A DNA stretch of 64,000 nt. It comes from Escherichia phage REP8. The notes under the pieces are model-generated. The model did no database searches. It saw only the letters and a program-made list of their open reading frames with translations, and was not told the DNA's origin. This document shows positions 4,330-64,000 of the stretch, piece after piece. The DNA is taken from sequence record OQ174507.1. One strand, 5' to 3'. Position numbers and translations under genes: made by a program. Numbering within the stretch: the stretch's first letter is position 1; every line of letters begins with the position of its first letter.

Positions 4330-4406
4330 CTCTGTTTAGCTCAGCTTGGTAGAGCGTTCCGTTTGGGGCGGTAAGGCCGGAGGTTCAAGTCCTCCAACAG
4401 AGACCA
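4330..4406 (+). tRNA. tRNA-Pro (anticodon TGG)
   Basis: acceptor CTCTGTT/AACAGAG, T-arm GGAGG-TTCAAGT-CCTCC, anticodon loop TTTGGGG, CCA encoded. Confidence 0.6.
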
Positions 4407-4413
4407 AATTAAT

Positions 4414-4491
4414 GTTCCAGTAGACAAAATGGTAAAGTCACCACTCTTTCAAAGTGGATATCTGAGGGTTCAAATCCCTTCTGGAACGCCA
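4414..4491 (+). tRNA. tRNA-Glu (anticodon TTC)
   Basis: acceptor GTTCCAG/CTGGAAC, anticodon stem CCACT/AGTGG with loop CTTTCAA, CCA encoded. Confidence 0.6.
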
Positions 4492-4582
4492 GTTTTGACA
4501 GAAGACCAATTACAGCAAACTTAATCTACTCATCTGACAAGAAATCGGACAAAGAAGATATTTGGTCTGGTCATTAAGAATT

Positions 4583-4656
4583 GCGGGTATAGAGAAAGGG
4601 CGTCTCACATGTCTCATTAGCATGGTATCGGCAGGTTCGACTCCTGCACCCGCCTC
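4583..4656 (+). tRNA. tRNA-Met (anticodon CAT)
   Basis: anticodon stem CATGT/GCATG with loop CTCATTA; T-arm GCAGG-TTCGACT-CCTGC; acceptor register uncertain. Confidence 0.5.
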
Positions 4657-4742
4657 CAAATTTACAGAAGACCGTTTACAGCAACATTTATTAAATTTTT
4701 AGCGGAAAAAATTGAAAGATACGGTCTGGTAATACTAAATAT

Positions 4743-4816
4743 GGTTAGGAAGCACATAAGGTATGTGCGGTCGCCTGTTAAGCGAATGGCACAGGGTTCG
4801 AATCCCTGACTAACCG
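4743..4816 (+). tRNA. tRNA-Asn (anticodon GTT)
   Basis: D-stem GCAC/GTGC, anticodon loop CTGTTAA, T-arm CAGGG-TTCGAAT-CCCTG; no CCA encoded. Confidence 0.55.
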
Positions 4817-4827
4817 CAAATTTAAAT

Positions 4828-4915
4828 GTGTCGTTATCCCGTAGATGGTAGCGGTGGGGACTGTAAATCCCTTGTCATTGAGACTCGGTAGGTTCGACTC
4901 CTACACGGCACACCA
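4828..4915 (+). tRNA. tRNA-Tyr (anticodon GTA), long variable arm
   Basis: 88 nt; acceptor GTGTCGT/ACGGCAC, anticodon stem GGGGA/TCCCT with loop CTGTAAA, CCA encoded. Confidence 0.55.
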
Positions 4916-4920
4916 ATAAA

Positions 4921-5006
4921 GGTTATGTAGTTTAATTTGGTTAAAATACTTCCACGTAAAAGGATATTGGGAGATGATGTGAGTTCAAGTCTCATCGTAG
5001 CCGCCA
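4921..5006 (+). tRNA. tRNA-like gene, anticodon arm unresolved
   Basis: 86 nt; good acceptor GGTTATG/CGTAGCC, T-arm GTGAG-TTCAAGT-CTCAT and CCA, but no canonical 5 bp/7 nt anticodon stem-loop found by hand. Confidence 0.35.
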
Positions 5007-5158
5007 ATTTTGAGAGGGCTATTTAGAACCTCCCTTAAAGGGTTCTTACGAGTATCCTTTAAAGGAGCAGAAGACCAAATTCAGCAAGTTACTTAAAATT
5101 TCAAGCCAATTCAATTTTGAAAAATTTAAAACTTGGTCTGGCTCAACAAATTTACAGA

Positions 5159-5283
5159 AGACCGTTTACAGCAAAACTTAAACAATCTATTTCTCGGTAA
5201 AGAAAAGGAGAAGGTTCGATTCCTTCACTCGGCAGATGTCGAGTTGGTGTAATGGTAGCACTTAAGATGATAAACAACGGTCT
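5159..5283 (+). ncRNA. circularly permuted tRNA-like module closed by an 8 bp stem (Y-RNA-like candidate)
   Basis: order is T-arm GAAGG-TTCGATT-CCTTC, acceptor 3' strand ACTCGGC, AGAT, acceptor 5' strand GTCGAGT, D-arm-like GGTGTAATGGTAGCAC; flanked by AGACCGTT (5159-5166) / AACGGTCT (5276-5283). Confidence 0.35.
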
Positions 5284-5286
5284 GGT

Positions 5287-5430
5287 AATTATCTTTGTAG
5301 ATAAGTTATTAAGCTTACCTGTGAGTATGCGACCACAAAGGGTGAAAGGGTAAATTCTAGATTTAAACCCAACAAGGCACATCGCTACAGACCTTAAGCA
5401 AGTCTGGGTAGCTTATCTACAAAGATAATT
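5287..5430 (+). repeat. structured element closed by a perfect 19 bp inverted repeat
   Basis: AATTATCTTTGTAGATAAG (5287-5305) pairs with CTTATCTACAAAGATAATT (5412-5430); ~106 nt interior holds sub-hairpins. Confidence 0.55.
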
Positions 5431-5434
5431 TAAT

Positions 5435-5510
5435 GGAAGTGTAGCAGAATGGTGATGCGGCAGACTTTTAATCTGACAGGCGATGGGTTCGAATCCCTCC
5501 ACTTCTACCA
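5435..5510 (+). tRNA. tRNA-Lys (anticodon TTT)
   Basis: acceptor GGAAGTG/CACTTCT, anticodon stem CAGA/TCTG with loop CTTTTAA, CCA encoded. Confidence 0.55.
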
Positions 5511-5514
5511 AAAT

Positions 5515-5590
5515 GGTTCAGTCGCAGATAAGGTAATGCAAGGGTCTCATAAGCCCTATGAATGTGGGTTCGATTCCCATCTGAACCTCC
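5515..5590 (+). tRNA. tRNA-Met or Ile2 (anticodon CAT)
   Basis: acceptor GGTTCAG/CTGAACC, anticodon stem AGGGT/GCCCT with loop CTCATAA, CCA encoded; 1-72 paired so not a bacterial initiator. Confidence 0.55.
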
Positions 5591-5593
5591 AAA

Positions 5594-5669
5594 GCTGTGA
5601 AAGCACATATGGATGTGCATTCGGCTGATAACCGAAAGGCAGAAGGTTCGAATCCTTCTCACAGTACCA
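5594..5669 (+). tRNA. tRNA-Ile (anticodon GAT)
   Basis: D-stem GCAC/GTGC, anticodon stem TTCGG/CCGAA with loop CTGATAA, T-arm GAAGG-TTCGAAT-CCTTC, CCA encoded. Confidence 0.65.
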
Positions 5670-5684
5670 ATTTCAATAAAGTTG

Positions 5685-5713
5685 TTGACATTGAGATGTG
5701 ACCACTTTATAGT
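5685..5713 (+). promoter_or_regulatory. sigma70-like promoter inside the tRNA array
   Basis: TTGACA, 17 bp spacer, TATAGT. Confidence 0.5.
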
Positions 5714-5917
5714 AACCTTAGTTTTCGTTGCGTAGCGTCTATTTTGCAAATTTAAAATAAATGCAAACGACAATGTTTTTCTGGCAGTAGCTTGATAGGC
5801 TAAACACCAGTGAGGTCTTCCAACCCCTCATCAAAGAATTTGGCGTACTAGCCCACGGTATGATTAATAAGGTGGGCATCTTTAAGGGCTTTCTAAGAGA
5901 GTCTTTAAAGATAATTA

Positions 5918-5999
5918 CGGGGCGTATCTCAGCTGTCTTCTAAACAGCCGTTAATCGAGTAAGTGGAGTATGCGGGTTCGAGTCCTGCCGCCTCGACCA
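5918..5999 (+). tRNA. atypical tRNA-like gene with Arg-type anticodon loop (TCT)
   Basis: 82 nt; acceptor CGGGGCG/CGCCTCG, perfect hairpin GCTGT-CTTCTAA-ACAGC, T-arm and CCA present, but only ~5 nt where the D-arm should be. Confidence 0.35.
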
Positions 6000-6238
6000 A
6001 TTTAGTTAGCAGATTACTTAGACGACCTTAGCGGGTCTTCCTGTAGGGAGGTGGTCTGTATCTCATGTTTTCCAGAACATGTAAATAATCTGAGAAGGGG
6101 CTTTACAGTGTTGAGATAATACGGTAAGCTTCGAATTATAGTATGGGACGATGTTAAGACTCTAAGGCATGAGCAACGGCTTCCAACACCGTTTCAAAGG
6201 GGTTCAACTCCTCCGTCACATGCCAAAGTCTTATTAGG

Positions 6239-6326
6239 GGTAGGTAGCGGCTAATGGTAGCCAAACTGTCTTGAAAACAGTTGCCACTGTAGAGATACGG
6301 TGAGGGTTCGACTCCTTTACTTACCG
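6239..6326 (+). tRNA. tRNA-Ser (anticodon TGA), long variable arm
   Basis: 88 nt; acceptor GGTAGGT/ACTTACC, anticodon stem ACTGT/ACAGT with loop CTTGAAA. Confidence 0.55.
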
Positions 6327-6483
6327 CCTAATAAGATTTAAAGCCAAGCTTCATTCGGATGTTGCTTTGGTATACCGCGTGTATTGTTGTACACATTGAT
6401 AAAACACCTAGTAGGTGTCACGGAGAAGAGATAATATCAAGCTCTCCAAAGGTTCTAGTCACCGGATTAAACAAGACTATGCA

Positions 6484-6505
6484 AAGACCTTTTTAGGTCT
6501 TTTTA
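6484..6505 (+). terminator. rho-independent terminator-like hairpin inside the tRNA array
   Basis: AGACC-TTTTTA-GGTCT followed by TTTTT. Confidence 0.4.
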
Positions 6506-6583
6506 GAGGGCTTCTAAGGTTATTACAGCTTGTTGTGGAACCTTGTTGCTTAGGTTCTTAGAAGTTCTCTAAAAAGACTTAAT

Positions 6584-6661
6584 GGGAGATTGACGGTAAT
6601 TGGTAAACCTATCTCGCTTAGAACGAGATGTTTGAGGGTTCGAATCCCTTGTCTCCTACCA
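6584..6661 (+). tRNA. tRNA with anticodon TAG (Leu by anticodon; short variable region)
   Basis: acceptor GGGAGAT/GTCTCCT, anticodon stem TCTCG/CGAGA with loop CTTAGAA, A73, CCA encoded. Confidence 0.45.
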
Positions 6662-6668
6662 AATTAAT

Positions 6669-6744
6669 GCAGGTGTAGCAAAATGGTTATGCGGCTGACT
6701 CTTAATCAGTAAGACGATGGGTTCAATTCCCTCCACCTGTACCA
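6669..6744 (+). tRNA. tRNA-Lys (anticodon CTT)
   Basis: acceptor GCAGGTG/CACCTGT, anticodon stem GCTGA/TCAGT with loop CTCTTAA, CCA encoded. Confidence 0.55.
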
Positions 6745-6750
6745 GACATT

Positions 6751-6826
6751 GGGGATGTAGTTTACATGGTTAAAACATAAGTTTTGCAAACTTAAGTACA
6801 GGGTTCAATTCCCTGCTTCTCCACCA
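6751..6826 (+). tRNA. tRNA-Ala (anticodon TGC)
   Basis: D-stem GTTT/AAAC, anticodon stem TAAGT/ACTTA with loop TTTGCAA, T-arm CAGGG-TTCAATT-CCCTG, CCA encoded. Confidence 0.6.
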
Positions 6827-6832
6827 ATTAGT

Positions 6833-6907
6833 GCATCCATAGTTTAAACGGGAAAATTACAGTCTTCCAAACTGAGGTTGAGGGTTCGATTCCCTCTGGA
6901 TGCTCCA
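6833..6907 (+). tRNA. tRNA-Gly (anticodon TCC)
   Basis: acceptor GCATCCA/TGGATGC, anticodon loop CTTCCAA, T-arm GAGGG-TTCGATT-CCCTC, CCA encoded. Confidence 0.55.
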
Positions 6908-6913
6908 AATAAT

Positions 6914-6990
6914 GCTGCTTTCGTATAATTGGCTATTACACATCCCTTGTAAGGATGGAAATGCAGGTTCGAGTCCTGTGAGCAGCACCA
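6914..6990 (+). tRNA. tRNA-Thr (anticodon TGT)
   Basis: acceptor GCTGCTT/GAGCAGC, anticodon stem CATCC/GGATG with loop CTTGTAA, CCA encoded. Confidence 0.6.
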
Positions 6991-6992
6991 AT

Positions 6993-7080
6993 TCAGAGGT
7001 CAAGTGAAAGACCGCTGGTGTCAACTGAAGACCGTAACAAATTCCACGGAGTTGAGTTAGCGGCACAACTTCAGACCTCT
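6993..7080 (+). ncRNA. long imperfect hairpin (candidate small RNA or processing element)
   Basis: nested stems CAGAGGTC/GACCTCTG, CCGCT/AGCGG, CAACT/AGTTG, CCGT/ACGG; contains a GAAGACCGT motif. Confidence 0.35.
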
Positions 7081-7085
7081 TTCAC

Positions 7086-7160
7086 ACTCGCTTAGTTTAT
7101 ATGGTAAAACATCACCCTTACAAGATGAAGAAAAAGGTTCAAGTCCTTTAGTGAGTACCA
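7086..7160 (+). tRNA. tRNA-Val (anticodon TAC)
   Basis: acceptor ACTCGCT/AGTGAGT, D-stem GTTT/AAAC, anticodon loop CTTACAA, CCA encoded. Confidence 0.5.
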
Positions 7161-7161
7161 T

Positions 7162-7239
7162 GTTCCAGTATCCCAATTGGCAGAGGATGCAAGCTCAAAC
7201 CTTGTATTAGTGACGGTTCGAATCCGTCTTGGAACACCA
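7162..7239 (+). tRNA. tRNA with anticodon CAA (Leu by anticodon; short variable region)
   Basis: acceptor GTTCCAG/TTGGAAC, anticodon stem GCAAG/CTTGT with loop CTCAAAC, T-arm GACGG-TTCGAAT-CCGTC, A73, CCA encoded. Confidence 0.45.
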
Positions 7240-7258
7240 ATTTTAAGAGGCTATTTAG

Positions 7259-7816
7259 ATGAGATATTTGAAGTATGCTTCATGGATTTTCCTAGCTTTA
7301 CTAGAGCCATTTGCAGCAACCCTAGCAGTCATCTTAGCACCTTTCGTAGTTCCATTCTACAGTGAGAAGAAAGGGCATCTACCTTTTGGATTCAGATGGA
7401 TGGAGACCTATGACAACCCGATTGATGGTGACAAAGGCCACGTTGAGAGATGGGCTAAGATTAGAAAGATTGGTAAGCTCGGTGTTTATATGCAGAGAGT
7501 TGGGTGGCTCTGGAGAAACAAAGCTTATAACTTCTCTTACCATGTATTAGGAAGAGATGTAAAAGATGTTACTAAGTGGAAAGGTAATATCAACGTAAGT
7601 TCTGACCCTGAAGATAATCAGACTGGTTATCTCCTAATGTGGAACAGTAATGCTTGGGGATTATTCGCTTTTATCCCATCAATTAAAGTCTTTGGTAAAC
7701 AGTTTTACTGGAGAATTTATATTGGATGGAAACTAAAAAGCGTTGTCCCAGAAGAAAGAGCATTCTCAAGGGAAAGAGTTATGTTGGCATTCTTTATTCA
7801 TCCACTGAGAAAGTAA
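7259..7816 (+). CDS. hypothetical membrane protein encoded inside the tRNA array
   Basis: 185 aa; AAGAGG RBS 8 nt upstream of ATG; hydrophobic N-terminus (WIFLALLEPFAATLAVILAPFVV). Confidence 0.45.
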   Translation: MRYLKYASWIFLALLEPFAATLAVILAPFVVPFYSEKKGHLPFGFRWMETYDNPIDGDKGHVERWAKIRKIGKLGVYMQRVGWLWRNKAYNFSYHVLGRDVKDVTKWKGNINVSSDPEDNQTGYLLMWNSNAWGLFAFIPSIKVFGKQFYWRIYIGWKLKSVVPEERAFSRERVMLAFFIHPLRK

Positions 7817-7824
7817 AGATTTAA

Positions 7825-7900
7825 AGGGGATTAGTTTACAAGGTTAAAACCTCGGTCTTTGAAATCGAAGAAGTTGGTTCAATTCCAACATCCCCCGCCA
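7825..7900 (+). tRNA. tRNA-Gln (anticodon TTG)
   Basis: anticodon stem TCGGT/ATCGA with loop CTTTGAA, T-arm GTTGG-TTCAATT-CCAAC, CCA encoded. Confidence 0.5.
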
Positions 7901-7902
7901 AT

Positions 7903-7981
7903 GCTCCATTACTCCAATTGGCAGAGAGGCCAGACTTAAAATCTGTGTTATGTATCGGTTCGAATCCGATATGGAGTACCA
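7903..7981 (+). tRNA. tRNA with anticodon TAA (Leu by anticodon)
   Basis: acceptor GCTCCAT/ATGGAGT, anticodon stem CAGA/TCTG with loop CTTAAAA, A73, CCA encoded. Confidence 0.45.
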
Positions 7982-7986
7982 AATTT

Positions 7987-8062
7987 AGCGGTATAGCATA
8001 ACTGGCAATGCAACAGTCTCTGAAGCTGTCCTATTAAGGTTCAAATCCTTATGCCGCTGCCA
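7987..8062 (+). tRNA. tRNA-Gln (anticodon CTG)
   Basis: acceptor AGCGGTA/TGCCGCT, D-stem GCAT/ATGC, anticodon stem ACAGT/GCTGT with loop CTCTGAA, CCA encoded. Confidence 0.55.
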
Positions 8063-8093
8063 CTTCTAAGGATTCTTGCGAGAGTCCTTAAAT

Positions 8094-8169
8094 GTGGCCT
8101 TATCATAAATGGTAATGACCCATGCTGTGAACATGGTCTATACGGGTTCAAATCCCGTAGGTCACCCCA
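8094..8169 (+). tRNA. tRNA-His (anticodon GTG)
   Basis: acceptor GTGGCCT/AGGTCAC, anticodon stem CCATG/CATGG with loop CTGTGAA, C73, CCA encoded. Confidence 0.6.
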
Positions 8170-8174
8170 ATTTA

Positions 8175-8251
8175 TAGTCCAAGTAGCTTATATGGTTAAA
8201 GCGCGTGTCTGAAAAACATGAGAAGAGGGTTCAAATCCCACTGGACTACCA
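8175..8251 (+). tRNA. tRNA-Phe (anticodon GAA)
   Basis: acceptor TAGTCCA/TGGACTA, anticodon stem CGTGT/ACATG with loop CTGAAAA; 3' end register uncertain. Confidence 0.5.
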
Positions 8252-8267
8252 ATTTCAAAGGTGCTTA

Positions 8268-9002
8268 ATGAAAGAGATGACAGAACAAGGTAAGGAGATT
8301 TTTAATCTCTTAAAAACCGGTAAAGGGTTTTCTAATCCCCTTATTACTGGTGCAGCAGTCCTCGGTGGAACCGTAGCTGCTTCTACATCACTTGTAAGCT
8401 CTATTAGTTCTGTAACAGACCCTACAATGAAGGAGAAACTTGTTACTGCTGGACTTACAACAGTCCTTCTAAACAGCTTTACAACAAGCCTTACAAGCAC
8501 TACAGCAACTACTAAGACCCTAACAGACTACGGTCAAAAGTCTATTGATGAGTTTTCATCACGTATGCAGGTAGCAAAGGGATACTCTAATGTTATGGGT
8601 GCAGCAGGAGAACAAGTTGGTTGTACACCATTCAGTGGTATTATGGGTGTTGCTACAGAGTATGGTCAAAAAGCTATTGACATGATGAACAGTACACTAG
8701 ATAGTGTTAATGGTGTGTTAAGTGACTTACAAGATGCTATTGATAAGGGTCTTGATACTGTTTCTGATTTAGCTGAGCAAGCTGTTAGTAAGATTAATGA
8801 AGGTATTTCGAAGATTACAGCTTATGCAGATGAAGTTGTGCAGATGATTGAAGAAGAAGCTGCCCTTATTGCAGAGTACCTTAAAACGAATATCAATGGG
8901 TTCTTAGCAGGTATCTTACCAGACTGGTTTGATGATGCTTGTAAAACTGGTGTGATTGAAACTATTGCAACACCAGAAATGAAGAGCGCATTACAGAAAT
9001 AA
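8268..9002 (+). CDS. hypothetical protein
   Basis: ORF-track frame 8205..9002 begins inside tRNA-Phe; in-frame ATG at 8268 with AAAGG upstream is the more likely start. Confidence 0.4.
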   Translation: MKEMTEQGKEIFNLLKTGKGFSNPLITGAAVLGGTVAASTSLVSSISSVTDPTMKEKLVTAGLTTVLLNSFTTSLTSTTATTKTLTDYGQKSIDEFSSRMQVAKGYSNVMGAAGEQVGCTPFSGIMGVATEYGQKAIDMMNSTLDSVNGVLSDLQDAIDKGLDTVSDLAEQAVSKINEGISKITAYADEVVQMIEEEAALIAEYLKTNINGFLAGILPDWFDDACKTGVIETIATPEMKSALQK

Positions 9003-9004
9003 AT

Positions 9005-9097
9005 GGAAGATTAACCCTAAAAGGTAAGGGAGCAGTTTGCTAAACTGCCAGTAGCTGAGAAATCGGTGTACCAGTTCAAGTCTGGTATCTTCCTCCA
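9005..9097 (+). tRNA. tRNA-Ser (anticodon GCT), long variable arm
   Basis: 93 nt; perfect acceptor GGAAGAT/ATCTTCC, anticodon stem GCAGT/ACTGC with loop TTGCTAA, CCA encoded. Confidence 0.6.
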
Positions 9098-9101
9098 ATT
9101 T

Positions 9102-9177
9102 GAATCCGTGACAGAAATGGCTATGTGCCTGTCTGCAAAACAGGTTTATAAGGGTTCGAGTCCCTTCGGATTCTCCA
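9102..9177 (+). tRNA. tRNA-Cys (anticodon GCA)
   Basis: perfect acceptor GAATCCG/CGGATTC, anticodon stem CCTGT/ACAGG with loop CTGCAAA, CCA encoded. Confidence 0.65.
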
Positions 9178-37348: not shown

Positions 37349-37954
<606 letters not shown>

Positions 37955-38010
37955 TTAGTTGATTGTTAAGTTGTTTGTAAAGAACCCTCAACAGAAGACT
38001 CTTTAGAAAC

Positions 38011-38147
38011 TTGGCAGATTTTTTTATAAGGCTACTGCCATCCTTCCATACATTACCAAACAGTACCGTGCCACAACACACCATACCCAACTCCACCTAA
38101 CCCTACCACACCTTATTAAAAGACCCTCCTAAAGACCTTTTAAAAAA
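38011..38147 (+). repeat. intergenic repeated element, copy 2
   Basis: same core as copy 1 (one extra T in the T-run), followed by C/A-rich tracts and AAAGACCCTCCTAAAGACCTTTTAAAAA. Confidence 0.6.
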
Positions 38148-38346
38148 GTAAGTCTCATTTTAATGTAGCTGAGACTAACTACCCACACCAAACCTTACTT
38201 CACCGGACCCTACCACACCCTACCTAGCCTTGCATTACCGTACATCACTTAAAAACCCTCTTAGAAGACCCTTAAGTGATGCTGGTGAGTACCCGTTGGT
38301 TTATGCTGCTCAGTATACTCACCAAATTTTCTATGTCAACAACTTT

Positions 38347-39450
38347 TTATTCGTAGTCTCGAATAACTAACCCAACAGGGAACTGTAAAGAACCTTTACG
38401 AGTCATCTTCTGGAACTGAACCGTCAAAGGTTTCCCGATAAACTCTTCAGGATGTTCAGCAAGATACTGTTTCTTCTCATGAGTAGTCTTCCATGAGACA
38501 TCTACAAAGACGTTAGGAAGAGTCTCTACAACGAACTTGCCATGACCACGCTTATCAGTCTTTACACCAGTCACTTTAAACTCTTCAGTGTGCATCTTCT
38601 TGTGCTTAATCAAGAAGTATGAACGGTGACAGCACTCATAGAAGGAGTCTTCAGAGATTGAACGGTACATTGCACCTTCAAACTTAGCTTCAACCCACTT
38701 ATCATGAGCTTCATCAAACTCTTCCCAAGAATTTACACGACGAGACTTAACAGGGATAACTTTACAGCCATCTCTAAAGTCATTCAATGGTGAAGTCTCA
38801 ATAATATCTCTACGCTCAGGCCACGTCTTAGTACTGTCACAGATATCATACCAGTAAAACTTGAGCAAGTGTCTGTCAGGATTGTCTTCATTTTTAATCA
38901 TGGAGACGATATCTTCTAAGTCCCACCCATGAGCATAAATCTCTCCATCAAATTCATCAACATCTTTGTGGAGCCTTAACATTGCCATAATGTCAGGTAT
39001 TAGTTCAGTAGGTATTTTGTAAACAGTATTCTCACGAGAATATGCTGTAAATACACTGCCAATGCTTAAGTGCCTTGAAATCCTACAACGGACACCATCA
39101 AGTTTCGGTTGAGCATCAGCAGGGAACTTCAGATACTTTGCATGGCTAACCTTTGCAGCATCATGAGCAAGTTGTACACCTACCTTCTCAGTATTCTGTG
39201 CAGACTCTTTTGTGTAAGCATAACCTTTGCGGTCAACTTGCTTTTTATACTTAGCAGCAACTTCAAAGAGAGCTTGCTGTTCAGCATTACGCTCATTCTT
39301 TTTACCGATGTTTTTCGGTTCTGCTGTATACTCTTCAAACATCATCTTGCCATTTTCTTTACCGTAGGTTGTAATAACTTTGTCACCTACAGCAACGCAT
39401 GACCAGACGTTAAAAGAGCCATCTTTATTTTGTTTGTATAGAATTGTCAT
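38347..39450 (-). CDS. ATP-dependent DNA ligase
   Basis: 367 aa; KLDGVRC matches ligase motif I (KxDG). Confidence 0.65.
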   Translation of the reverse strand: MTILYKQNKDGSFNVWSCVAVGDKVITTYGKENGKMMFEEYTAEPKNIGKKNERNAEQQALFEVAAKYKKQVDRKGYAYTKESAQNTEKVGVQLAHDAAKVSHAKYLKFPADAQPKLDGVRCRISRHLSIGSVFTAYSRENTVYKIPTELIPDIMAMLRLHKDVDEFDGEIYAHGWDLEDIVSMIKNEDNPDRHLLKFYWYDICDSTKTWPERRDIIETSPLNDFRDGCKVIPVKSRRVNSWEEFDEAHDKWVEAKFEGAMYRSISEDSFYECCHRSYFLIKHKKMHTEEFKVTGVKTDKRGHGKFVVETLPNVFVDVSWKTTHEKKQYLAEHPEEFIGKPLTVQFQKMTRKGSLQFPVGLVIRDYE

Positions 39451-41232: not shown

Positions 41233-41500
41233 CATCTGGTCAATACACTCGCAAGGTGTACCAGTTCTCTTATGAACTTCTCCGCATTTCTACGGAGTGT
41301 CGGACTATATCACGTAGTAGTAATACTACCGTTGCACTTGGGAATGGTCATTAGCTTACCACCCTACTCTACTCAGTTCATACATTAAGTATGCTTTTCG
41401 ATAGTCTCTGAACGTTCCTCTCAAGAGGCTTCGCTGCTGATTACCGTATCTTCTCAGACTTAGGCTTCCAGCAATTCACAACGTTTTACATGCGCCACTG
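41233..41500 (-). ncRNA. group I intron in the DNA polymerase gene
   Basis: 268 nt; exon ends ATGCGT and intron nt 6-11 GCGCAT form P1; GTTCAGAGACTA (R) and GATATAGTCC (S); last nt G; opens with a stop in frame; no ORF inside. Confidence 0.6.
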
Positions 41501-43673
41501 ACGCATAAATGCCATTTTTGGCTTTCTTACGACCTTTTGTAATCTCGTGGAGAAGTTCCTCATCCTGTGTCTCCCTGCAACGAACAATATCCTCTTCTTT
41601 GTTAAGACCAAAGTAAATACTGTTCAGTGTATGCGCATCAGTCCCTGTGTAGACTTCATAGAGGTCGTTCTCAGCATCATAACGAAGATACTTATCAGTT
41701 TCTGGATTAAGATACTTATCGAGATGCTTGCAATAGTATCTGCCATCTTCTTGCTTAGTGAACTCTACTGACTCTTTACCCTCAGTTACCGCTTTGGTGA
41801 ACTCTTTATCACCCATAAAGTTACAAAGAAGAACAAGCTGTGCAGAGTTCTGGTCAACTGAAACGATATTAGTCCCTTCCTCGCAAATCCAAACCTCCCT
41901 CATAGGCGCTCCATAGACAGCAGCACCAGACGGTACGTTTACAATACCATATTGTGTCATACGTCCAGTTGAAGTACCAAACACCATTGCACCAGCACTA
42001 AGGCGACCATCAGGACGAATCTGGTTCAACCAACCTTTTTCATCATCCTTTGAGTTCTCAATAGTTCTGCGTCGGTGCATCAAAGTATAGTACTTAGCAA
42101 TCTTCTGTCCAAGCTCACCTTCAATCGTGTCATAAGATGATTCAGTAAGTTTTGGTGAAGTACGGATTAAGCAAGGCTCAAGCAAATCTGTGTATTTCTT
42201 CACAGACCAGTTATGTTCAATGTACTGTACACCTTCATGCTCAACATAGCTCAAACCACACCGCTCAACCATTTCCTGCCACTTAGGATGCTTTGTAATC
42301 ATCTTTTTATTGTCTTTGAAACGACAAACTTTAACAGGGCGACCATCTGAGTCTTTCTTGTAGTTCCAGTCATCTGGAATCCAACCAACTGATTTCAAGT
42401 AGTCTTTAACAACTGCTACCTGAGTCATACGAGAAACTTCAAACTCAATTGGTGTATACGGTGCATCAATCAAACCTGTGTAGCGACTCGACTCAAGCTC
42501 AAAGTGGTTAACAACGTGGCTGTTATAGTACTTCACAGTTTTGACTGTTTTTACTGGCTTCCAGTCTTTGCATTTCTTACCAATCTTTGCGTTCAACTCA
42601 TTGCAAATTGCACGAGCATCCTTCATTGCTACAAAACCTTCTTTGTACTCTTCACCAGTTACAGAGTTGGTTGGTGTATAGCAATTCCGCTTTTCAATGT
42701 TAAAAATCTTTGTAGTTGGCTTACCAAATGGCTTGATTTCATATGTCTGCATCTCACCGTTACGTACCTGTTGACGATACTTTGTCTTAGGGTACTTGGT
42801 AATTCTCTTCAGTCCATCTGCATGACCAAATGCTTCAACATACTCATTCCAAGCTTTTGCAAACTCTTCTCCAGTGACTTTACCTTTGGTCTTAATAGTT
42901 GGAGGTAGATGTGGTTCAACCTCTGAAGCAAGCTCATTAGTCAACTTGTCAAGTTCCTTTACATGGAACTCCATAAGTTCTTTATCAGCTTTCCAGCCAT
43001 TGATAGCTTGTTGACTCATCCAGAAAGATGTTTCTTTAGCTCGCATGTAGGTTTCATAGGTGTCTACGCCACACTTCTTTAGCTTCAGATATTCATTATC
43101 CAATGCACGTTTAGTTTTGGCGTTGATACGGATATCTTCTACAACACGAGTGAAGATTTCTGCATTCCACACACCCCAATGTTCAATCTCTGGTTTACGA
43201 ACACCAACACGAGCACCCCATGCAGCCAAGCCATGAGCACCTTTATAACCCTTTGGAGTTGGCCTATCCATCCACTGAACACGAGACTGGATAAGAGAAT
43301 CCTGAAAGAAATTACTCCACGGTTTACACTTTGGATTATCAAAGTTCCATAAATCAGGTGCAATGTGATTGAAAACCCACCAGTCATAACCGAGACCGTT
43401 ATGGATGCAAAGACGTTTTGCCTTTAACGCAAATTCAACACCTTCACGTAAACCACCCTTGATGTACTTAGTGTACTTGTGACCGAGGATAGGTTCATCT
43501 GTAAAGACCCATACAGGTGGCTCTTCATCGTCAGATTTATAGTCTGCGAAAGCCATTACGTGCACTTTAGTGAACTCAAGAAGTAAACCATCAGTTTCTG
43601 TATCACCAACTAAATGTAAGTTTTTAAAATCTACGTTTTCCATTTTTACTCCCTCTAAAATCATTAACCTCAT
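41501..43673 (-). CDS. DNA polymerase (family A, T7-like), exon 1
   Basis: N-terminal exonuclease motif LVGDTETDGL; ends ...RKKAKNGIYA in the middle of motif B. Confidence 0.65.
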
Positions 43674-49507: not shown

Positions 49508-50548
49508 ATGGAGAAGTACACATTAACAAAACTTCCCGATTCAGTTACACATGTTTTTATTGACTCTGACAGTATTGCCTATAAAGGTGCTTGTGTAGTT
49601 GAGAAAGCAAAATATAAATATGTCAATAAACTCACAGCAGAAGAGTCTGAGCCATTTGATAATGCGAAAGATGCTGCAAGATGGTTAGCAGACCAGAGAA
49701 TCCTTGTGGAAGAGCTTGGTCTGACATTTGATGAAGATGAATGGGAAAGACAGACTTGGAAAGAAGCTAAGAGTGAAAAAGAAGCTATCATGGCTACTCA
49801 ACAGGTGCTTCAGGAATGGCTTAAGGTTGTTGGTAAAGAGAGAACTTGGGTAGGTTATTTAACAGAGAAAGGTGTGCATAAACATAAAGACATTAAAGGT
49901 CTTGAGCACCAATATCAAGGGAACCGTAAAGATGCTGTCACACCAACACACTTAGTTGCTTGTCGTGAATACCTTTTATCCAGACCAGAGTTCAAGCTGA
50001 TTCTTGATGGATTTGAAGCTGACTCTATCGTTATTGCTAAAGCTGAAAAGATGGGAAAAAAGGCTGCCTTAATGAGTATTGATAAAGACCTTCGCCAAGC
50101 TGAAGGGACTTACTGCATTGATATGACCTATGAAAAGTCGCCTTTGATTTTTATTGCTGATAACAACGTTGGTGAAATTTGGGATTGTCCAATAAAATCG
50201 ACACCAAAAGCTAAGAAGACAGTTGGTGTGGGTTTTAAATTCCTTTGTTATCAAGCTGTGGCTGGTGACAATGCTGATAATTATTTTGGTTTAAAGGGCG
50301 TTGGTAAGGCTACTGTAATGAAAGCCCTTGAAGGTAAAAATACTTATAAAGAGTGTCTTGATGCTATCTATGAACTTTATGCTAAGAAAGAGTCATACAC
50401 TTATGTATCATGGGATGGTCAAACAATTACCAGAACACCTTTAGAGTTAATGCAGCAACACTTTTTCTTAGCTTATCAGGAAAGAAATAAGAAAGACGAT
50501 TTTACTTTTAAGAAATATAATTGGGAGCCGTGTATGAATGAAGATTAA
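49508..50548 (+). CDS. probable 5'-3' exonuclease (FEN-like)
   Basis: 346 aa; acidic N-terminal motif FIDSDSIAYK; position in replication module. Confidence 0.4.
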   Translation: MEKYTLTKLPDSVTHVFIDSDSIAYKGACVVEKAKYKYVNKLTAEESEPFDNAKDAARWLADQRILVEELGLTFDEDEWERQTWKEAKSEKEAIMATQQVLQEWLKVVGKERTWVGYLTEKGVHKHKDIKGLEHQYQGNRKDAVTPTHLVACREYLLSRPEFKLILDGFEADSIVIAKAEKMGKKAALMSIDKDLRQAEGTYCIDMTYEKSPLIFIADNNVGEIWDCPIKSTPKAKKTVGVGFKFLCYQAVAGDNADNYFGLKGVGKATVMKALEGKNTYKECLDAIYELYAKKESYTYVSWDGQTITRTPLELMQQHFFLAYQERNKKDDFTFKKYNWEPCMNED

Positions 50549-51035
50549 AGGATTTGGTAATTGCCCCACCTATGGTCATTGGGTATCTTTATGTGGGGAA
50601 GTTGACCCCACTAAACATTTTGGTTTTGTCTATTTAGTACACTGTAAGAAAACCGGACAATATTATATAGGAAGGAAACAGTTTAACAGTGTTACCAAAA
50701 GAAAAGTTGCTGGAAAGACTCGGAAGAAGGTAGTCACTAAGGAGAGTGATTGGATGACTTATGAGACTTCTTCTGAGTATATTAAAAAAGATATTGAGAG
50801 CTTTGGAAAAGAATTTTTTGACTTTTACATTATTCAGACCTACTACACAAAAGGTGGCCTAGTTTATGGTGAAGCAAACCTTCAACATAAGTTCGATGTA
50901 ATGACAAAAAGGATTGACTCGAAGCTCAGACTCTTCTACAATGCCAATATTGCAGCAATTAAGTTTATCACTAAAGAAACTTATGAAGATGCTGAAAAAA
51001 GAATCCATAAGGTAATGAAAGCAAATTGTGCTTGA
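50538..51035 (+). CDS. GIY-YIG endonuclease-like protein
   Basis: 165 aa; FGFVYLVHCKKTGQYYIGRKQ fits the GIY-(8-11 aa)-YIG-R pattern. Confidence 0.4.
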   Translation: MKIKGFGNCPTYGHWVSLCGEVDPTKHFGFVYLVHCKKTGQYYIGRKQFNSVTKRKVAGKTRKKVVTKESDWMTYETSSEYIKKDIESFGKEFFDFYIIQTYYTKGGLVYGEANLQHKFDVMTKRIDSKLRLFYNANIAAIKFITKETYEDAEKRIHKVMKANCA

Positions 51036-56821: not shown

Positions 56822-58018
56822 ATGAACAAAGTACAGATTATTAAAAAGAATGGCTCACTCGAAGAACCTGATATCAAAAAAGTTTTAACAGCAGTCACAA
56901 AGTCAGCTAATAGGGTTGGGTATAAAGAACTCCCGCCAGATGTTACCCAAGCTCTTGAGTCAGCATTTATGAGGGTTCTGGTAAAATCCACTAAGCAGAA
57001 TAATTTACTCGTTTCAGTAAATGATATTCACAGTATTGTTGAGGGTGCTTTGGCAGAAGTCAATCACGAGATTTATGAGTCTTACTCAACATATAGAAAT
57101 TACCGTAAAGAGGTTGCTCAAAACTGGGATGAACTCTACCAGAAGACTAAAGATACACTCTTCTTAGGTGACCGTGAAAATGCTAATTTTGACAGCAGTT
57201 TAATTTCTACGAAAGGTTCAATTATCCGTGGTTACCTGACTAAAGAAATCTTTAAACAGTATCATCTAACACCAGAGGAACTTGAAGCCATTGAGAAAGG
57301 CTTTGTCTATATCCATGATTTAAGAGACCTGATTTTTGGTGGTATTAACTGTTGCCTGTTTGACATTGGTAAAGTACTAAAAGGTGGCTTTGAAATGTCC
57401 GGCATTGAGTACTGTGAACCTAAATCTGTACTGTCAGCGTTGCAGGTTATTGGTGACGTAGTACTTTCAGCAACTGCACAGCAATTTGGTGGTTTTACTT
57501 TAGCAGAGATTGATAAGGTACTTGTACCGTATGCGAAGAAGTCTCTACGCTATCATGCTGAGAAAGCATCATCTTATGGTATCCCTAAAGAGCATTACCA
57601 CAATTATGTCATGGAGCAGCTACAGATTGAACTGACTCAAGGTTTCCAGTCGCTTGAAATGAAACTAAACACTGTACCTTGTAGTCGTGGGGATTTTGCA
57701 TTTACAACTTTGACATTCGGGTTACTTGACTCAGACATGTCTAATGAAGACAACCGACTGCAATACATGATTGCAAGTACTCTCCTAGATGTTCGTATGA
57801 ATGGACAAGGTAAGAGTAAGAAGCCTGTTGTATTCCCTAAACTGGTTTATATTTATGACCAGAAGAGACATAATGAGAATATCTGTCAAGGCCACCTGTA
57901 CAGTAAAGCTATAGAGTGTTGCTCTAAAGCGATGTATCCAGATTTCTTAAGTGTATCTGGTCATGGTGCTGTAGCAGAAGCTTTTGAGCGTTCTGGTAAG
58001 GTTATTTCACCGATGGGT
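56822..58018 (+). CDS. nrdD: anaerobic ribonucleotide reductase, exon 1
   Basis: ATP-cone-like N-terminus; ends ...ISPMG with T as last exon nucleotide; an in-frame TAA opens the intron. Confidence 0.65.
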
Positions 58019-58334
58019 TAACAAGCTCTATAGCTCATCTAAAACGTGCCTAAACAGGGAAACTCTACAGATGTAGACAATCCTGTGCTAAATGATGTAC
58101 GATGTAAGAAACTATACAACATAGGGGTCTTACATGCCAAATAACTTCGAATATGAGTTTGGATACATCTAAATGCCGAACGACTAACCGTGATGAATGT
58201 AGCGGTGTAGGGTCAAGCGACTCGAAATGGTACGCTACTTAGAAATAAGTAGAAGATATAGTCTGGACTTACTGGCGACAGTAAGCAGCTTGAATAAAGC
58301 GGGGTAAGCGTAGCGAACTTACCTGAACAACAAG
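58019..58334 (+). ncRNA. group I intron in nrdD
   Basis: 316 nt; AAGATATAGTCT (S element), GACTAA (R/P7 region), last nt G, preceding exon ends in T; no ORF inside. Confidence 0.6.
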
Positions 58335-59282
58335 TGTAGAGCGTTTTTATCACCATACCATAACGAAGATGGTGAAGAGTTTTATGTAGGTCGTGCTAAC
58401 ATTGGTGCTGTATCTTTGAACTTACCAATGATTTACCAGTACTCTAAAGAGAATGGTTTAGATTTCTGGAAAGAGCTTGATAAGTACCTAGAAATGATTC
58501 GCAGCTTCCACAAGAAACGCTACGAAATGATTGCTAATATGCCAGCAAGTTCTAACCCTCTTGCATTCACACAAGGTGGTCTGTACAAAGGGACTAAGAA
58601 ACCTACTGACAAGGTTGGTTGGGATATCGTGAAGTCCTTCACAGCTTCTTTTGGGGTTACTGCGCTTGATGAGCTATCTGTTCTTGCTGAAGGTAAACGA
58701 CTTCATGAAGTTGGAAGCTGTAGTTTTGCATACGATGTTCTGGAATACATCAACATGAAAACTGAAGAGTTTAAGAACGAAGATGGCTTCTTGTATGCGG
58801 TATATGGCACTCCAGCAGAATCACTTTGCGGAACTCAGCTAAAACAGTTCAGAGATATGTTTGGCGTTATTAAAGGTGTCTCTGACAAGGAATACTTTAC
58901 AAACAGTTTCCATATGAATGTTGCAGCAGACATTACACCATTTGAGAAGCAGGACTTAGAAGAACCCTTCTTTCATATCTGTAGAGGCGGCAGAATCCAG
59001 TATGTAAGGGTAGCTAATCCAGAAAACTTATCAGCACTTAAAAGTTGTATTACAAGAGGGATGTTGAAAGGTTTCTATCAGGGACTTAACTTTGACTTAG
59101 CAATCTGTGAACATTGTGGTAACAGACCAAAGGCTGATGTTGAAGAATGTGAGGTTTGCCATTCACACGATATCTCTGTGATTAACAGGGTGTGCGGGTA
59201 CTTGTCATTCACAAAAATTAAAGGTCAGTCTCGAATGAATGACGCTAAGATGGCAGAAATTAAGGATAGAGTATCTATGTAA
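58335..59282 (+). CDS. nrdD: anaerobic ribonucleotide reductase, exon 2
   Basis: begins CRAFLSP...GRANIGAVSLNLP; C-terminal zinc ribbon CEHCGN...CEVCHSHD and glycyl-radical motif RVCGYLSF. Confidence 0.65.
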   Translation, partial: CRAFLSPYHNEDGEEFYVGRANIGAVSLNLPMIYQYSKENGLDFWKELDKYLEMIRSFHKKRYEMIANMPASSNPLAFTQGGLYKGTKKPTDKVGWDIVKSFTASFGVTALDELSVLAEGKRLHEVGSCSFAYDVLEYINMKTEEFKNEDGFLYAVYGTPAESLCGTQLKQFRDMFGVIKGVSDKEYFTNSFHMNVAADITPFEKQDLEEPFFHICRGGRIQYVRVANPENLSALKSCITRGMLKGFYQGLNFDLAICEHCGNRPKADVEECEVCHSHDISVINRVCGYLSFTKIKGQSRMNDAKMAEIKDRVSM

Positions 59283-61392: not shown

Positions 61393-61404
61393 ACAGATAC
61401 TATA

Positions 61405-61433
61405 AGGGAACTGTAAAGGTTCCCTTTTTATTT
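61405..61433 (+). terminator. rho-independent terminator
   Basis: AGGGAAC-TGTAAAG-GTTCCCT followed by TTTTTATTTT. Confidence 0.6.
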
Positions 61434-61443
61434 TGGAGATAAA

Positions 61444-61959
61444 ATGTATCTGTCAAACCTGAAACGTTCGGCTGCAATGTCAGTGTTAAGACTCAGCTTT
61501 GAGGAACGTCAAGAGTTCATTGACTCCCACCAATACGACCCCTCAAACTCCAATCACATGATTCTCTGGAATCGTGAAAGTGCTCGTGAAAGAGCACTAT
61601 TCCGTTATTACCCACACTACACCATAGACAACCTGTATGAATGTTTTGTTGTGAAGAACACCATTACAGTACTCAATAAACTTTGCAGATACACAGGTAG
61701 TCAATCCTTCACATTAGGCCACCACAAACCTGTTACAAAGGGTGGTGAGCATCACTGTGCAAACTGGTTTATCCAGACTAAACTTGATAACCAGAAGCAG
61801 GGAGATAACCTTCTAAGCACACCTAAGATGACCTACGAAGAACAAGAGAAATATATCAAAAATAATATGCCAGATGTGCTTGACAACAACTATACAGATT
61901 TGGCAATATCTCTCCTGTTGAAGTTCGAGACAGTTTATAGGGCAACTTATAATGGCTAA
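61444..61959 (+). CDS. HNH endonuclease-like protein
   Basis: 171 aa; LGHHKPVTKGGEHHCANWFIQTKLDNQKQGD fits an HNH core. Confidence 0.45.
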   Translation: MYLSNLKRSAAMSVLRLSFEERQEFIDSHQYDPSNSNHMILWNRESARERALFRYYPHYTIDNLYECFVVKNTITVLNKLCRYTGSQSFTLGHHKPVTKGGEHHCANWFIQTKLDNQKQGDNLLSTPKMTYEEQEKYIKNNMPDVLDNNYTDLAISLLLKFETVYRATYNG

Positions 61960-62230
61960 AGAAAAGTGGGAGATTTTACCATTAGTCAGTGAAGGAGGTA
62001 ATGGTTGTGAGATGTACATGATACGTGGTCATGTTCCAGAACCAATTGCACTTGAGATGGTAAACAACTTTACAGATGGTTCTTACAAAGACTTAGGAGA
62101 GCCAACTATAAAGCATCAATGGGTAAAGCCTGTACCAGACAGCACAGGTAACTGTAGTGTACTTTACCACGTTGTAGACCCTGTAAAATGCAAATCTGCA
62201 ATGGCAGTAACAAACGTAACTTTTGATTGA
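61952..62230 (+). CDS. hypothetical protein
   Basis: 92 aa. Confidence 0.3.
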   Translation: MAKEKWEILPLVSEGGNGCEMYMIRGHVPEPIALEMVNNFTDGSYKDLGEPTIKHQWVKPVPDSTGNCSVLYHVVDPVKCKSAMAVTNVTFD

Positions 62231-63123
62231 GAGAGAAAACTATGAAAACATCTATCCGTGTCACAATTCATTCACCGACTAAAGGAACTCACGAAGAAGA
62301 GTTTAACATCATCCAATTCCCCTCTGGTGAGATTGGTGGCCACTTTTCACAAGAGCTTGTTGATTTTACTGCTTATGCAGCATCATCTATTAACAATGTG
62401 GTTATGATTGTAAAGGGTTATGACAAAGACACACTGTTTGCTGTGGCACTGGCTAAAGAAGCAATTGACGATTTAGTTCCTCATGATTATGCCCTGAAGA
62501 CTGTCATTTTTTACTACTTGCCAAATGCACGATACGACCGTCACATGTTTAAAGGCGACGCAGCAGCTTTAAAGGTTTTTGCTAAACAGGTAAATGCAAT
62601 GGGATTTGGTGCAGTCTGTGCAGTTGACCCTCACAGTTATGTACCAGATAACCTGTTTAACTGCTTCCAAAGTATTCCTCAAAAGGAAATTGCAGTCCAT
62701 TATGCAAATGACCCTCTGATTGATTACTTAGTAGCCCCAGATGCAGGTGCTTCTAAGAAGATTGCAGAGACTGCTAAAGAGGTGGATAAACCATATATCA
62801 CAATGTCTAAAGTACGTAACCTTAAGACTGGTGAAATTACTGGTATGCGAATCCTTGATGATGTTGATTTGACAGATAAAACCGTCATGATTCTGGATGA
62901 TATCTGTGATGGTGGTCGAACCTTCGTAGAAGCAGCGAAACATCTTCGTGAAGCAGGTGCAAAACGTGTGGAACTTTATGTAACACATGGTATTTTCTCT
63001 AAAGGTGTTGAAAACTTACTTGACAATGGTATTGACCACATCTACACTACAAACTCTTTAGGAGAAGCTAAAGACCGTAGCTTAACACATTATAGTCAAG
63101 TTACTGTAGCAAACCTTGATTGA
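62227..63123 (+). CDS. ribose-phosphate pyrophosphokinase (Prs)-family protein, candidate ADP-ribose pyrophosphate synthetase
   Basis: 298 aa; C-terminal VMILDDICDGGRTFVEAAKHLREAGAKRVELYVTHGIFS closely matches the Prs PRPP-binding loop. Confidence 0.6.
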   Translation: MREKTMKTSIRVTIHSPTKGTHEEEFNIIQFPSGEIGGHFSQELVDFTAYAASSINNVVMIVKGYDKDTLFAVALAKEAIDDLVPHDYALKTVIFYYLPNARYDRHMFKGDAAALKVFAKQVNAMGFGAVCAVDPHSYVPDNLFNCFQSIPQKEIAVHYANDPLIDYLVAPDAGASKKIAETAKEVDKPYITMSKVRNLKTGEITGMRILDDVDLTDKTVMILDDICDGGRTFVEAAKHLREAGAKRVELYVTHGIFSKGVENLLDNGIDHIYTTNSLGEAKDRSLTHYSQVTVANLD

Positions 63124-63132
63124 AAGTTTATA

Positions 63133-63153
63133 GGGGCTTAAAAGCCCCATTTT
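63133..63153 (+). terminator. terminator-like hairpin
   Basis: GGGGCT-TAAA-AGCCCC followed by ATTTT. Confidence 0.4.
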
Positions 63154-63168
63154 GAGAGAGATTAAAAG

Positions 63169-64000
63169 ATGACTAAATCACTTTATGCAGTACCAGCAGG
63201 TCTTAATGCAGATGCTTACAAGGCATCACATATATATCAGTATCCAGATGCTACGCAATATCTTATGTTGAACCTGACACCACGTAGTGATAAATGGTTT
63301 AACAGCCCCTTAGCAATTGATGGTGTAGTTGCTTTTGGTATTCAACGTTTTGTTAAAGATTACTTGATAGACCACTGGAACGCCACTTTCTTTGAACGTG
63401 ATAAAAAAGAAGCAGTTGACGAAATCTTAGAAGTCATGAATGGTGTTCTGGGTAAAGATGCTATCGGTCGAGAGCATTGGGAAGCACTTCACGATTTAGG
63501 CTATCTACCAGTTGAAGTATACGCTGTAGAAGAAGGTACAGTTGTTCCTATGCGTGTTCCAATGATTGTCTTCCAGAACACTGTTTCAGGTTTCCATTGG
63601 GTAGCAGGTTATCTGGAAGATGCTTTCTCTGCTGAGATTTGGAAGGCTTGTACCATTGCAACTATCGCATTGCACTACAAACGCATCTGTAAGAAGTGGG
63701 CTGACCTTACTTGTGACAACGACTTACATTTACCTTATCAGTGTCACGACTTTGCTATGCGTGGTATGTCCGGCTTTACTGATGACGCATTTAATGCTGT
63801 AGGTCACTTAACCAGCTTTAAAGGAACTGATAGCTTCCCTGCTGTATATACAGCTAAACGTATCTATGGTCAGTCTTACCCAATCTCTGATATTGGTAGT
63901 TCTGTACCAGCCACTGAACACTCTGTAATGTGTGCAAACATTGCTTGGGAAGGTGGTAATGAGTTGATTGAAGAAGAAAGACGCTTTAAAGGTGAGTTGC
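63169..64000 (+). CDS. nicotinamide phosphoribosyltransferase (Nampt/NadV)-family protein, 3' end beyond the window
   Basis: NADAYKASHIYQYP, HDFAMRGMSG, SFKGTDSF, SVPATEHSV align with conserved Nampt-family blocks; truncated by window end. Confidence 0.65.
   Translation, partial: MTKSLYAVPAGLNADAYKASHIYQYPDATQYLMLNLTPRSDKWFNSPLAIDGVVAFGIQRFVKDYLIDHWNATFFERDKKEAVDEILEVMNGVLGKDAIGREHWEALHDLGYLPVEVYAVEEGTVVPMRVPMIVFQNTVSGFHWVAGYLEDAFSAEIWKACTIATIALHYKRICKKWADLTCDNDLHLPYQCHDFAMRGMSGFTDDAFNAVGHLTSFKGTDSFPAVYTAKRIYGQSYPISDIGSSVPATEHSVMCANIAWEGGNELIEEERRFKGEL

Follow-up and report, generated by a model that had tools for sequence, protein, structure and literature searches.

The NARP1 pathway was discovered in the Felixounavirus Bas63 (JohannRWettstein, MZ501086), where it is encoded by genes 79-80 (Osterman et al., 10.1101/2024.02.11.579819). 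Bas63 deprived of these two genes is sensitive to SIR2-HerA, recovery of NAD+ is lost and ADPR-PP is absent, and the effect of the wild-type phage is independent of the host genes pncC and nadR (10.1101/2024.02.11.579819). The anti-defence effect was demonstrated by knockouts in Bas63 and Fado, and in an engineered SBSphiJ (10.1101/2024.02.11.579819). The enzymology was done with the homologues from SPbetaL1 (10.1101/2024.02.11.579819), as the Bas63 protein did not purify. SPbetaL1 Adps gives no product in a conventional Prs assay, but it pyrophosphorylates ADP-ribose (10.1101/2024.02.11.579819). SPbetaL1 Namat prefers ADPR-PP over PRPP and gives NAD+ directly (10.1101/2024.02.11.579819; PMC12774641). 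The catalytic lysine in the flexible loop of Adps is K162 in SPbetaL1 and K192 in Gary, and in the Adps clade a Namat gene is located close by in 97% of cases.

Namat contains an adenine-binding clamp that is lacking in Nampt (PMC12774641). The clamp helix follows a Namat-specific motif, GS-X-phi-X-phi-X-phi-TRD (PMC12774641). The clamp loop of Bas63 Namat is of the type with a lysine followed by stacking of the fourth residue, the third residue being expected to be Arg, Lys or Tyr (PMC12774641). Other described loci are NARP1-AP, with the composition Adps-Adpp-Namat, in Vibrio phage Gary (10.64898/2026.01.28.702374), and the RyDEP-containing NARP1 loci (10.64898/2026.05.28.727677).

The window considered here is a stretch of 64,000 nucleotides from Escherichia phage REP8 (OQ174507.1). 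Its bases 39001-64000, and likewise 62000-64000 when compared separately, are 100% identical to Escherichia phages REP9, REP10, REP11 and REP12 (OQ174508-11), and bases 1-25000 are 99.0-99.7% identical to REP9-12. All these phages belong to the genus Felixounavirus, as does Bas63. Near its end the window contains a gene pair that is very probably a two-gene NARP1 (Adps and Namat) of a Felixounavirus, rebuilding NAD+ after its depletion by the host. The features of this region are as follows.

62242-63123, plus strand: predicted adps (ADP-ribose diphosphokinase, Prs family), 293 aa; from Pfam, PHROG and the REP9 and Bas63 annotation.
62242-62781, plus strand: N-terminal allele segment of adps, aa 1-180; delimited by the drop of identity to Bas63 and not of the Bas63 class.
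63124-63168, plus strand: spacer between adps and namat, 45 nt, with a hairpin and a ribosome-binding site; from the predicted fold and the comparison with Bas63.
63169-64000, plus strand: predicted namat (nicotinamide ADP-ribose transferase, Nampt family), codons 1-277 of 593; from Pfam and PHROG; cut at the window end.

The adjacent Prs-family and Nampt-family genes described in the earlier note are thus both present, and the one correction required is a shift in the start of the first gene. The ORF listed there (62227-63123, plus strand) opens at TTG 62227, and its first in-frame ATG is at 62242 with GAGAGAG just 5' of it. This ATG is the more likely start, because of the GAGAGAG motif and because the same start is annotated in the identical REP9 record and in Bas63 (293 aa). 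The second gene is indeed cut by the window end, as had been noted: the namat ORF, which opens at ATG 63169, is interrupted there after 277 codons. In the 100% identical REP9 record namat is intact and encodes 593 aa, and hence the truncation reflects the place where the window ends rather than the biology of the phage.

The locus can be aligned with that of Bas63 in many respects. The lengths of the two genes (293 and 593 aa), their position in the genome and the 45-nt spacer with its hairpin are the same. The order nrdD (with an intron), nrdG, five small ORFs, adps, namat is common to Bas63 and the window, and the REP9 record goes on to small ORFs, rIIA and rIIB, again as in Bas63. The Bas63_0080 protein is 97% identical to the Namat fragment from the window and 98% identical to the full-length REP9 Namat. 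The identity of Bas63_0079 to the window Adps is 78%, with no gaps. There are also differences. The nrdD intron of Bas63 carries a homing endonuclease, whereas that of the window does not, and residues 1-180 of Adps belong to different allele classes (67% amino-acid identity, 60-79% nucleotide identity). The SPbetaL1 locus has the same two-gene order, but the identity of the Adps proteins is about 30-34%.

At the level of family labels, the pair could be read as a conventional salvage pathway, in which a PRPP synthetase and a NadV/Nampt enzyme make NMN, and the host NadR or PncC completes the synthesis of NAD+, so that the supply of nucleotides and NAD is boosted. The Pfam, PHROG and GenBank labels all agree with this reading. 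The window Adps matches Pribosyltran (3.3e-11) and Pribosyl_synth (1.4e-09) in Pfam and PHROG 619, "ribose-phosphate pyrophosphokinase" (2e-97), and the Pfam and PHROG matches of both ORFs are far above the chance level. A search of PDB for a solved structure of Adps produced only Prs proteins, the best one being Sulfolobus Prs (5.5e-18). Among the NCBIfam models, the broad Prs subfamily TIGR01251 is just passed (122.6 bits, cut-off 113). However, it is the sole model passed: the window Adps misses the cut-offs of all Prs equivalogs (296 and above), the best score being 104.1 bits where 296 would be required. SPbetaL1 Adps behaves in the same way, and the scores of E. coli Prs on TIGR01251 and NF002320 are 423-532 bits. 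Further, the Pfam domain Pribosyltran_N was not detected in the window Adps, whereas E. coli Prs (b1207), which is 25-27% identical to Adps and belongs to a separate clade, scores 179.5 bits on this domain.

Phylogenetic placement against Prs and characterised Adps, which had been proposed as a check, favours NARP1. A small neighbour-joining tree was constructed for 13 sequences (150 bootstraps, support counted by bipartitions): the Adps of the window, Bas63 and SPbetaL1, four further homologues linked to Namat (three phage proteins and one encoded in a Curtobacterium genome) and six Prs of cellular origin. The Namat-linked Adps proteins are split from Prs in 150/150 bootstraps, and the window and Bas63 proteins are sisters, again in 150/150. 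The BLAST score of the window Adps is 479 bits with Bas63 Adps, 98-141 bits with other Adps and 44-61 bits with Prs. In the alignment, Adps proteins share the signatures DPHS, K-x-R-N/D-x-x-TGEI and DDICDGGRT, where Prs have DLHA, KRRP and DDMIDTGGT, respectively, and in particular the 5-phosphate loop, DTGGT in Prs, is altered to DGGRT. Residue K190 of the window Adps aligns with the catalytic K162 of SPbetaL1 Adps and with K194 of E. coli Prs, and R192 is likewise invariant across the alignment. Finally, namat begins 45 nt 3' of adps on the same strand, that is, in the vicinity where it is found in the Adps clade.

The namat ORF of the window matches NAMPT_N in Pfam, and the NAPRTase score is slightly under the cut-off because the fragment is truncated. 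It also matches PHROG 16547 (3e-142) and PHROG 448 (2.2e-105), both labelled "nicotinamide phosphoribosyl transferase". In structure searches with the full REP9 protein, the best match is to the crystal structures of SPbetaL1 Namat, 9W5W/9W5X (4e-129), followed by PDB 9KE8/9KEO (1.6e-105); the Xanthomonas (about 1e-51) and human (about 1e-41) Nampt also match.

The published contacts of Namat with NAD+ were mapped onto the window and REP9 proteins using the alignment with the SPbetaL1 structure. The counterparts within the window are D15, Y17, K42/W43, F195, R198, D221, A248 and the catalytic H251, and those beyond the window, taken from REP9 Namat, are R327, D329, G458, D459, Y490, Y494, T496, R497 and D498. 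The Nampt-like core is present, consisting of Y17, F195, R198, D221 and H251 in the window and of R327 and D329, the equivalents of Arg306 and Asp308, in the identical REP9 record; H245 and R306 of SPbetaL1 Namat correspond to H251 and R327. The clamp loop TPRSDKWF (K42, W43) is the same as in Bas63, whereas SPbetaL1 has Arg40 at the place of the Lys-Trp pair. The clamp helix, read from the REP9 record as it lies outside the window, is GSYTYQYMTRD (G488-D498). It fits the Namat motif, as does the SPbetaL1 helix, with Met in the third phi position, which is mainly Asn or Val according to PMC12774641. Compared to SPbetaL1, Felixounavirus Namat has an insertion of about 15 aa within the window (aa 258-276) and another of about 85 aa beyond it (aa 344-427).

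The pair does resemble E. coli Prs and Nampt/NadV in the folds and in the general scheme of the reactions, where a pyrophosphoryl group is transferred to the C1 of ribose and the pyrophosphate is then displaced by nicotinamide. Moreover, NMN synthesis from PRPP is retained by Namat in vitro, with about half the rate seen for human Nampt (PMC12774641), as the salvage reading would have it, and some salvage of the conventional kind is therefore conceivable. On the other hand, Nampt lacks the adenine clamp of Namat, the anti-defence effect of Bas63 persists in a host without pncC and nadR while ADPR-PP appears only with the operon, and the SPbetaL1 Adps gives no product in the Prs assay (10.1101/2024.02.11.579819). 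Together with the clade, the equivalog scores and the altered phosphate loop of Adps, this makes conventional salvage very improbable. The statement in the earlier note that sequence alone cannot separate the two pathways was too cautious, since the published clamp motifs and the clade membership discriminate between them.

Another possibility is a pathway of the NARP2 type, where a Nampt acts together with a phage NMN adenylyltransferase, as do NadV and NatV of KVP40, and NAD+ is made from PRPP, nicotinamide and ATP. The second gene of the pair is indeed of the Nampt family, and the REP9 genome has a gene annotated as "NAD synthetase", corresponding to window positions 50538-51035. This candidate for the adenylyltransferase was rejected, as its product contains a GIY-YIG endonuclease domain of the SegE type (Pfam, 1.7e-28). 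No Nmnat-like product is annotated in bases 1-50000 of REP9, which include the locus, and a check of the seven flanking ORFs did not reveal one either. The second protein of the pair has clamp residues of the Namat type and is classed as "Adps-associated" in the discovery paper (10.1101/2024.02.11.579819). We consider a NARP2-type pathway hardly credible, the least probable of the alternatives to NARP1.

Two alleles of the N-terminal 180 residues of Adps, deeply diverged from each other, occur in Felixounavirus as judged by sequence comparison, and the window Adps has one of them. In the flanks (2 kb upstream), the nucleotide identity to Bas63 is 96-100%. It drops exactly at the start of adps, being 60-68% at 62246-62545, and returns to about 88-94% after 62750. 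The amino-acid identity to Bas63_0079 is 67% for residues 1-180 (53% for residues 1-60 and 77% for residues 61-120) and 96% for residues 181-293, the C-terminal catalytic half. At third codon positions, the identity is 0.45-0.47 for residues 1-120, 0.52 for residues 1-180 and 0.78 for residues 181-293. The third positions are thus near saturation, which points to an old allele rather than a recent rapid change. The distribution of identity in the 5' 519 nt of adps over 252 Felixounavirus records is bimodal: 155 records have about 90% or more, and the remaining 97 have 60-80%. Hence the window carries the majority form, and the Bas63 allele is in the minority.

As the allele tested in Bas63 is of the other class, and its first 180 residues are so different, one could suppose that the window allele has drifted to another substrate or partner and that a NARP1-like architecture conceals a different chemistry. 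However, all columns invariant in Adps and Prs are retained in both alleles (F26, G29, E30, R97, D99, R100, H131, D167, K190, R192, D219, D220, G225 and T227), the catalytic half is almost the same as in Bas63, and the majority allele is paired with a conserved Namat wherever this was checked (REP9 and ASO1A). Such a drift is therefore highly unlikely, somewhat more so than conventional salvage.

The spacer between the genes contains a GC-rich hairpin at 63133-63148, GGGGCT-TAAA-AGCCCC, with the folding energy -13.9 kcal/mol (z = -2.99). It is retained in Bas63 with one change in the loop. The hairpin does not satisfy the T-run rule of the terminator scan and hence is not called a terminator. 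The ribosome-binding site of namat, GAGAGAG, is located in the same spacer. The sole terminator found in the scan (61404-61426) is followed by two small ORFs and then by adps. A promoter scan beside the pair produced nothing above chance (four promoter-like sites, 6.5 expected). In ASO1A and similar relatives, an HNH gene resides at the adps-namat spacer, whereas the window spacer contains no homing endonuclease gene. The endonuclease of these relatives was considered as a possible cause of the allele mosaic, but the link is not evident, as the divergence is strongest in the 5' half of adps, 400-900 nt from the endonuclease site.

Thus the assignment of the pair to NARP1 is based here on sequence identity, orthology and synteny, on the clade to which Adps belongs, and on the conserved catalytic and substrate-selectivity residues, whereas for the chemistry in a REP9-type phage we infer from orthology. 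Like the characterised enzymes, the window Adps would convert ADP-ribose and ATP into ADPR-PP. The likely course of events is that a host defence system (SIR2-HerA, DSR, type I Thoeris, Kongming or SPARSA) splits NAD+ into ADP-ribose and nicotinamide. Adps would then use ATP to put pyrophosphate on the free ribose of ADP-ribose, yielding ADPR-pyrophosphate, and Namat would replace the pyrophosphate of this compound by nicotinamide, yielding NAD+ directly, with neither NMN nor the host NadR and PncC involved. This regeneration of NAD+ may allow the phage to replicate despite the depletion.

This feature is not new. In the discovery paper, the supplementary tables contain OQ174508_00043 with the entry "Namat within 10 genes: Yes", and OQ174508_00044 is given there as "Adps-associated" (10.1101/2024.02.11.579819); the REP9 protein sequences in these tables are the same as the window proteins. 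The pathway, its chemistry, the structure and, through these gene identifiers, the membership of the phage have all been published. The NARP1-like reading of the pair given in the earlier note is borne out by this listing, as well as by the orthology and synteny with Bas63, the clade and the clamp residues.

The Adps and Namat core is common to the window locus, NARP1-AP and the RyDEP-containing loci. No gene with a Macro or RyR domain was found between the two genes or beside them (five upstream and two downstream ORFs). Thus this is a minimal two-gene NARP1, neither NARP1-AP nor a RyDEP-type locus.

A homologue of Adpp with a Macro domain (WBY53867, 261 aa; bas63_0095 in Bas63) is encoded elsewhere, at 37610-38395 of REP9, which is 14 genes downstream of namat and about 8.4 kb past the window end. 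It is the sole such homologue in the genome. The alignment covers the full length of Gary Adpp, a characterised ADPR-1''-phosphate phosphatase, and the protein retains the essential histidine. The published survey of NARP1-AP was limited to a distance of two genes from NARP1, and no Felixounavirus is listed in it (10.64898/2026.01.28.702374). One possibility is that Felixounaviruses such as REP8 and Bas63 run a dispersed NARP1-AP; separately, the two ancient N-terminal alleles of Adps could reflect selection by a host factor directed against Adps. Both suggestions are tentative, and we consider them rather unlikely.

As the pathway, the chemistry, the structure and the place of this phage among NARP1 carriers are already published, the analysis adds nothing new to the biology. 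It does indicate that, as regards the function of the pair, GenBank is wrong in labelling the two genes "ribose-phosphate pyrophosphokinase" and "nicotinamide phosphoribosyl transferase". If the Macro-domain protein feeds ADPR-1P back into Adps, Felixounaviruses would also resist defence of the aRES type. The pair itself is likely to be an anti-defence module, with which Felixounaviruses of the therapeutic type could infect hosts that have NAD+-depleting systems, and such a module bears on the prediction of host range.

A Macro-domain protein is encoded downstream of the NARP1 genes adps and namat in REP9 (OQ174508), a near-identical relative, 14 genes after namat. A homologue is present in Bas63 (MZ501086), the Felixounavirus of the NARP1 discovery.

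REP9, L005:37610-38395, about 8.4 kb past the window end: Macro-domain protein, 261 aa, annotated as 'phosphatase' (Pfam Macro, 29.9 bits)
Bas63, L002:33279-34064: homologue of the REP9 Macro protein

The ADPR-1''-phosphate phosphatase Adpp of Vibrio phage Gary, where it forms the NARP1-AP system together with Adps and Namat (10.64898/2026.01.28.702374), aligns over its whole length to residues 3-154 of the REP9 protein (29% identity, E 5e-15), and its essential His24 is conserved there as His25. Felixounavirus is absent from the list of the published NARP1-AP survey, whose range was two genes on either side of NARP1. One possibility, suggested by this alignment, is that the Macro protein is tied to NARP1. 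This link is unproven, as the PHROG of the protein is spread over about 3000 phage records, T4-like phages among them.

Compared to the crystallised Namat of SPbetaL1, the Felixounavirus Namat has two insertions. The first, of about 15 aa (the IAWEGGNELIEEERRFKGE region), lies in the window at 63937-63996. The second, of about 85 aa (aa 344-427 of the REP9 Namat, L001:8199-8450), is past the window end. The word 'insertion' was not found in the text of the structural paper on the SPbetaL1 protein (PMC12774641).

Several other genes and two group I introns were found in the window.

4330-9174, plus strand: cluster of 22 tRNA genes
41280-41563, minus strand: group I intron (Rfam RF00028, 61.7 bits)
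50538-51035, plus strand: gene annotated in REP9 as 'NAD synthetase' via PHROG 447, in fact a GIY-YIG endonuclease domain of the SegE type (Pfam, 1.7e-28)
57911-58285, plus strand: group I intron in nrdD (RF00028, 55.4 bits)
61444-61959, plus strand: 171-aa ORF of PHROG 3500 (unknown function)

The label 'NAD synthetase' is misleading; this gene has nothing to do with NAD metabolism. The ORF at 61444-61959, two genes upstream of adps and directly after the sole terminator-like site (61404-61426), has a weak HNH-endonuclease-like match (2.6e-4). The nrdD gene is split by its intron into ORFs 56822-58021 and 58416-59282. The corresponding intron of Bas63 contains an ORF for a homing endonuclease, about 420 nt long, which the intron in the window lacks. 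The second intron sits in the gap within a pair of REP9 CDSs labelled 'DNA polymerase', which are adjoined by an HNH endonuclease gene.

The spacer between adps and namat (63124-63168) is only 45 nt long and contains a conserved GC hairpin. Unlike in relatives such as vB_EcoM_ASO1A, it does not contain a free-standing HNH homing endonuclease gene (L004:2633-3124 in that phage), whose product is described in the record as similar to a Felix O1 protein. Finally, the 5' half of adps (62242-62781) exists within Felixounavirus as two deeply diverged alleles. The match is confined to the 3' part of this segment in one or more records, including that of Salmonella phage ST11. The window type is represented by 155 records and the Bas63 type by 97.
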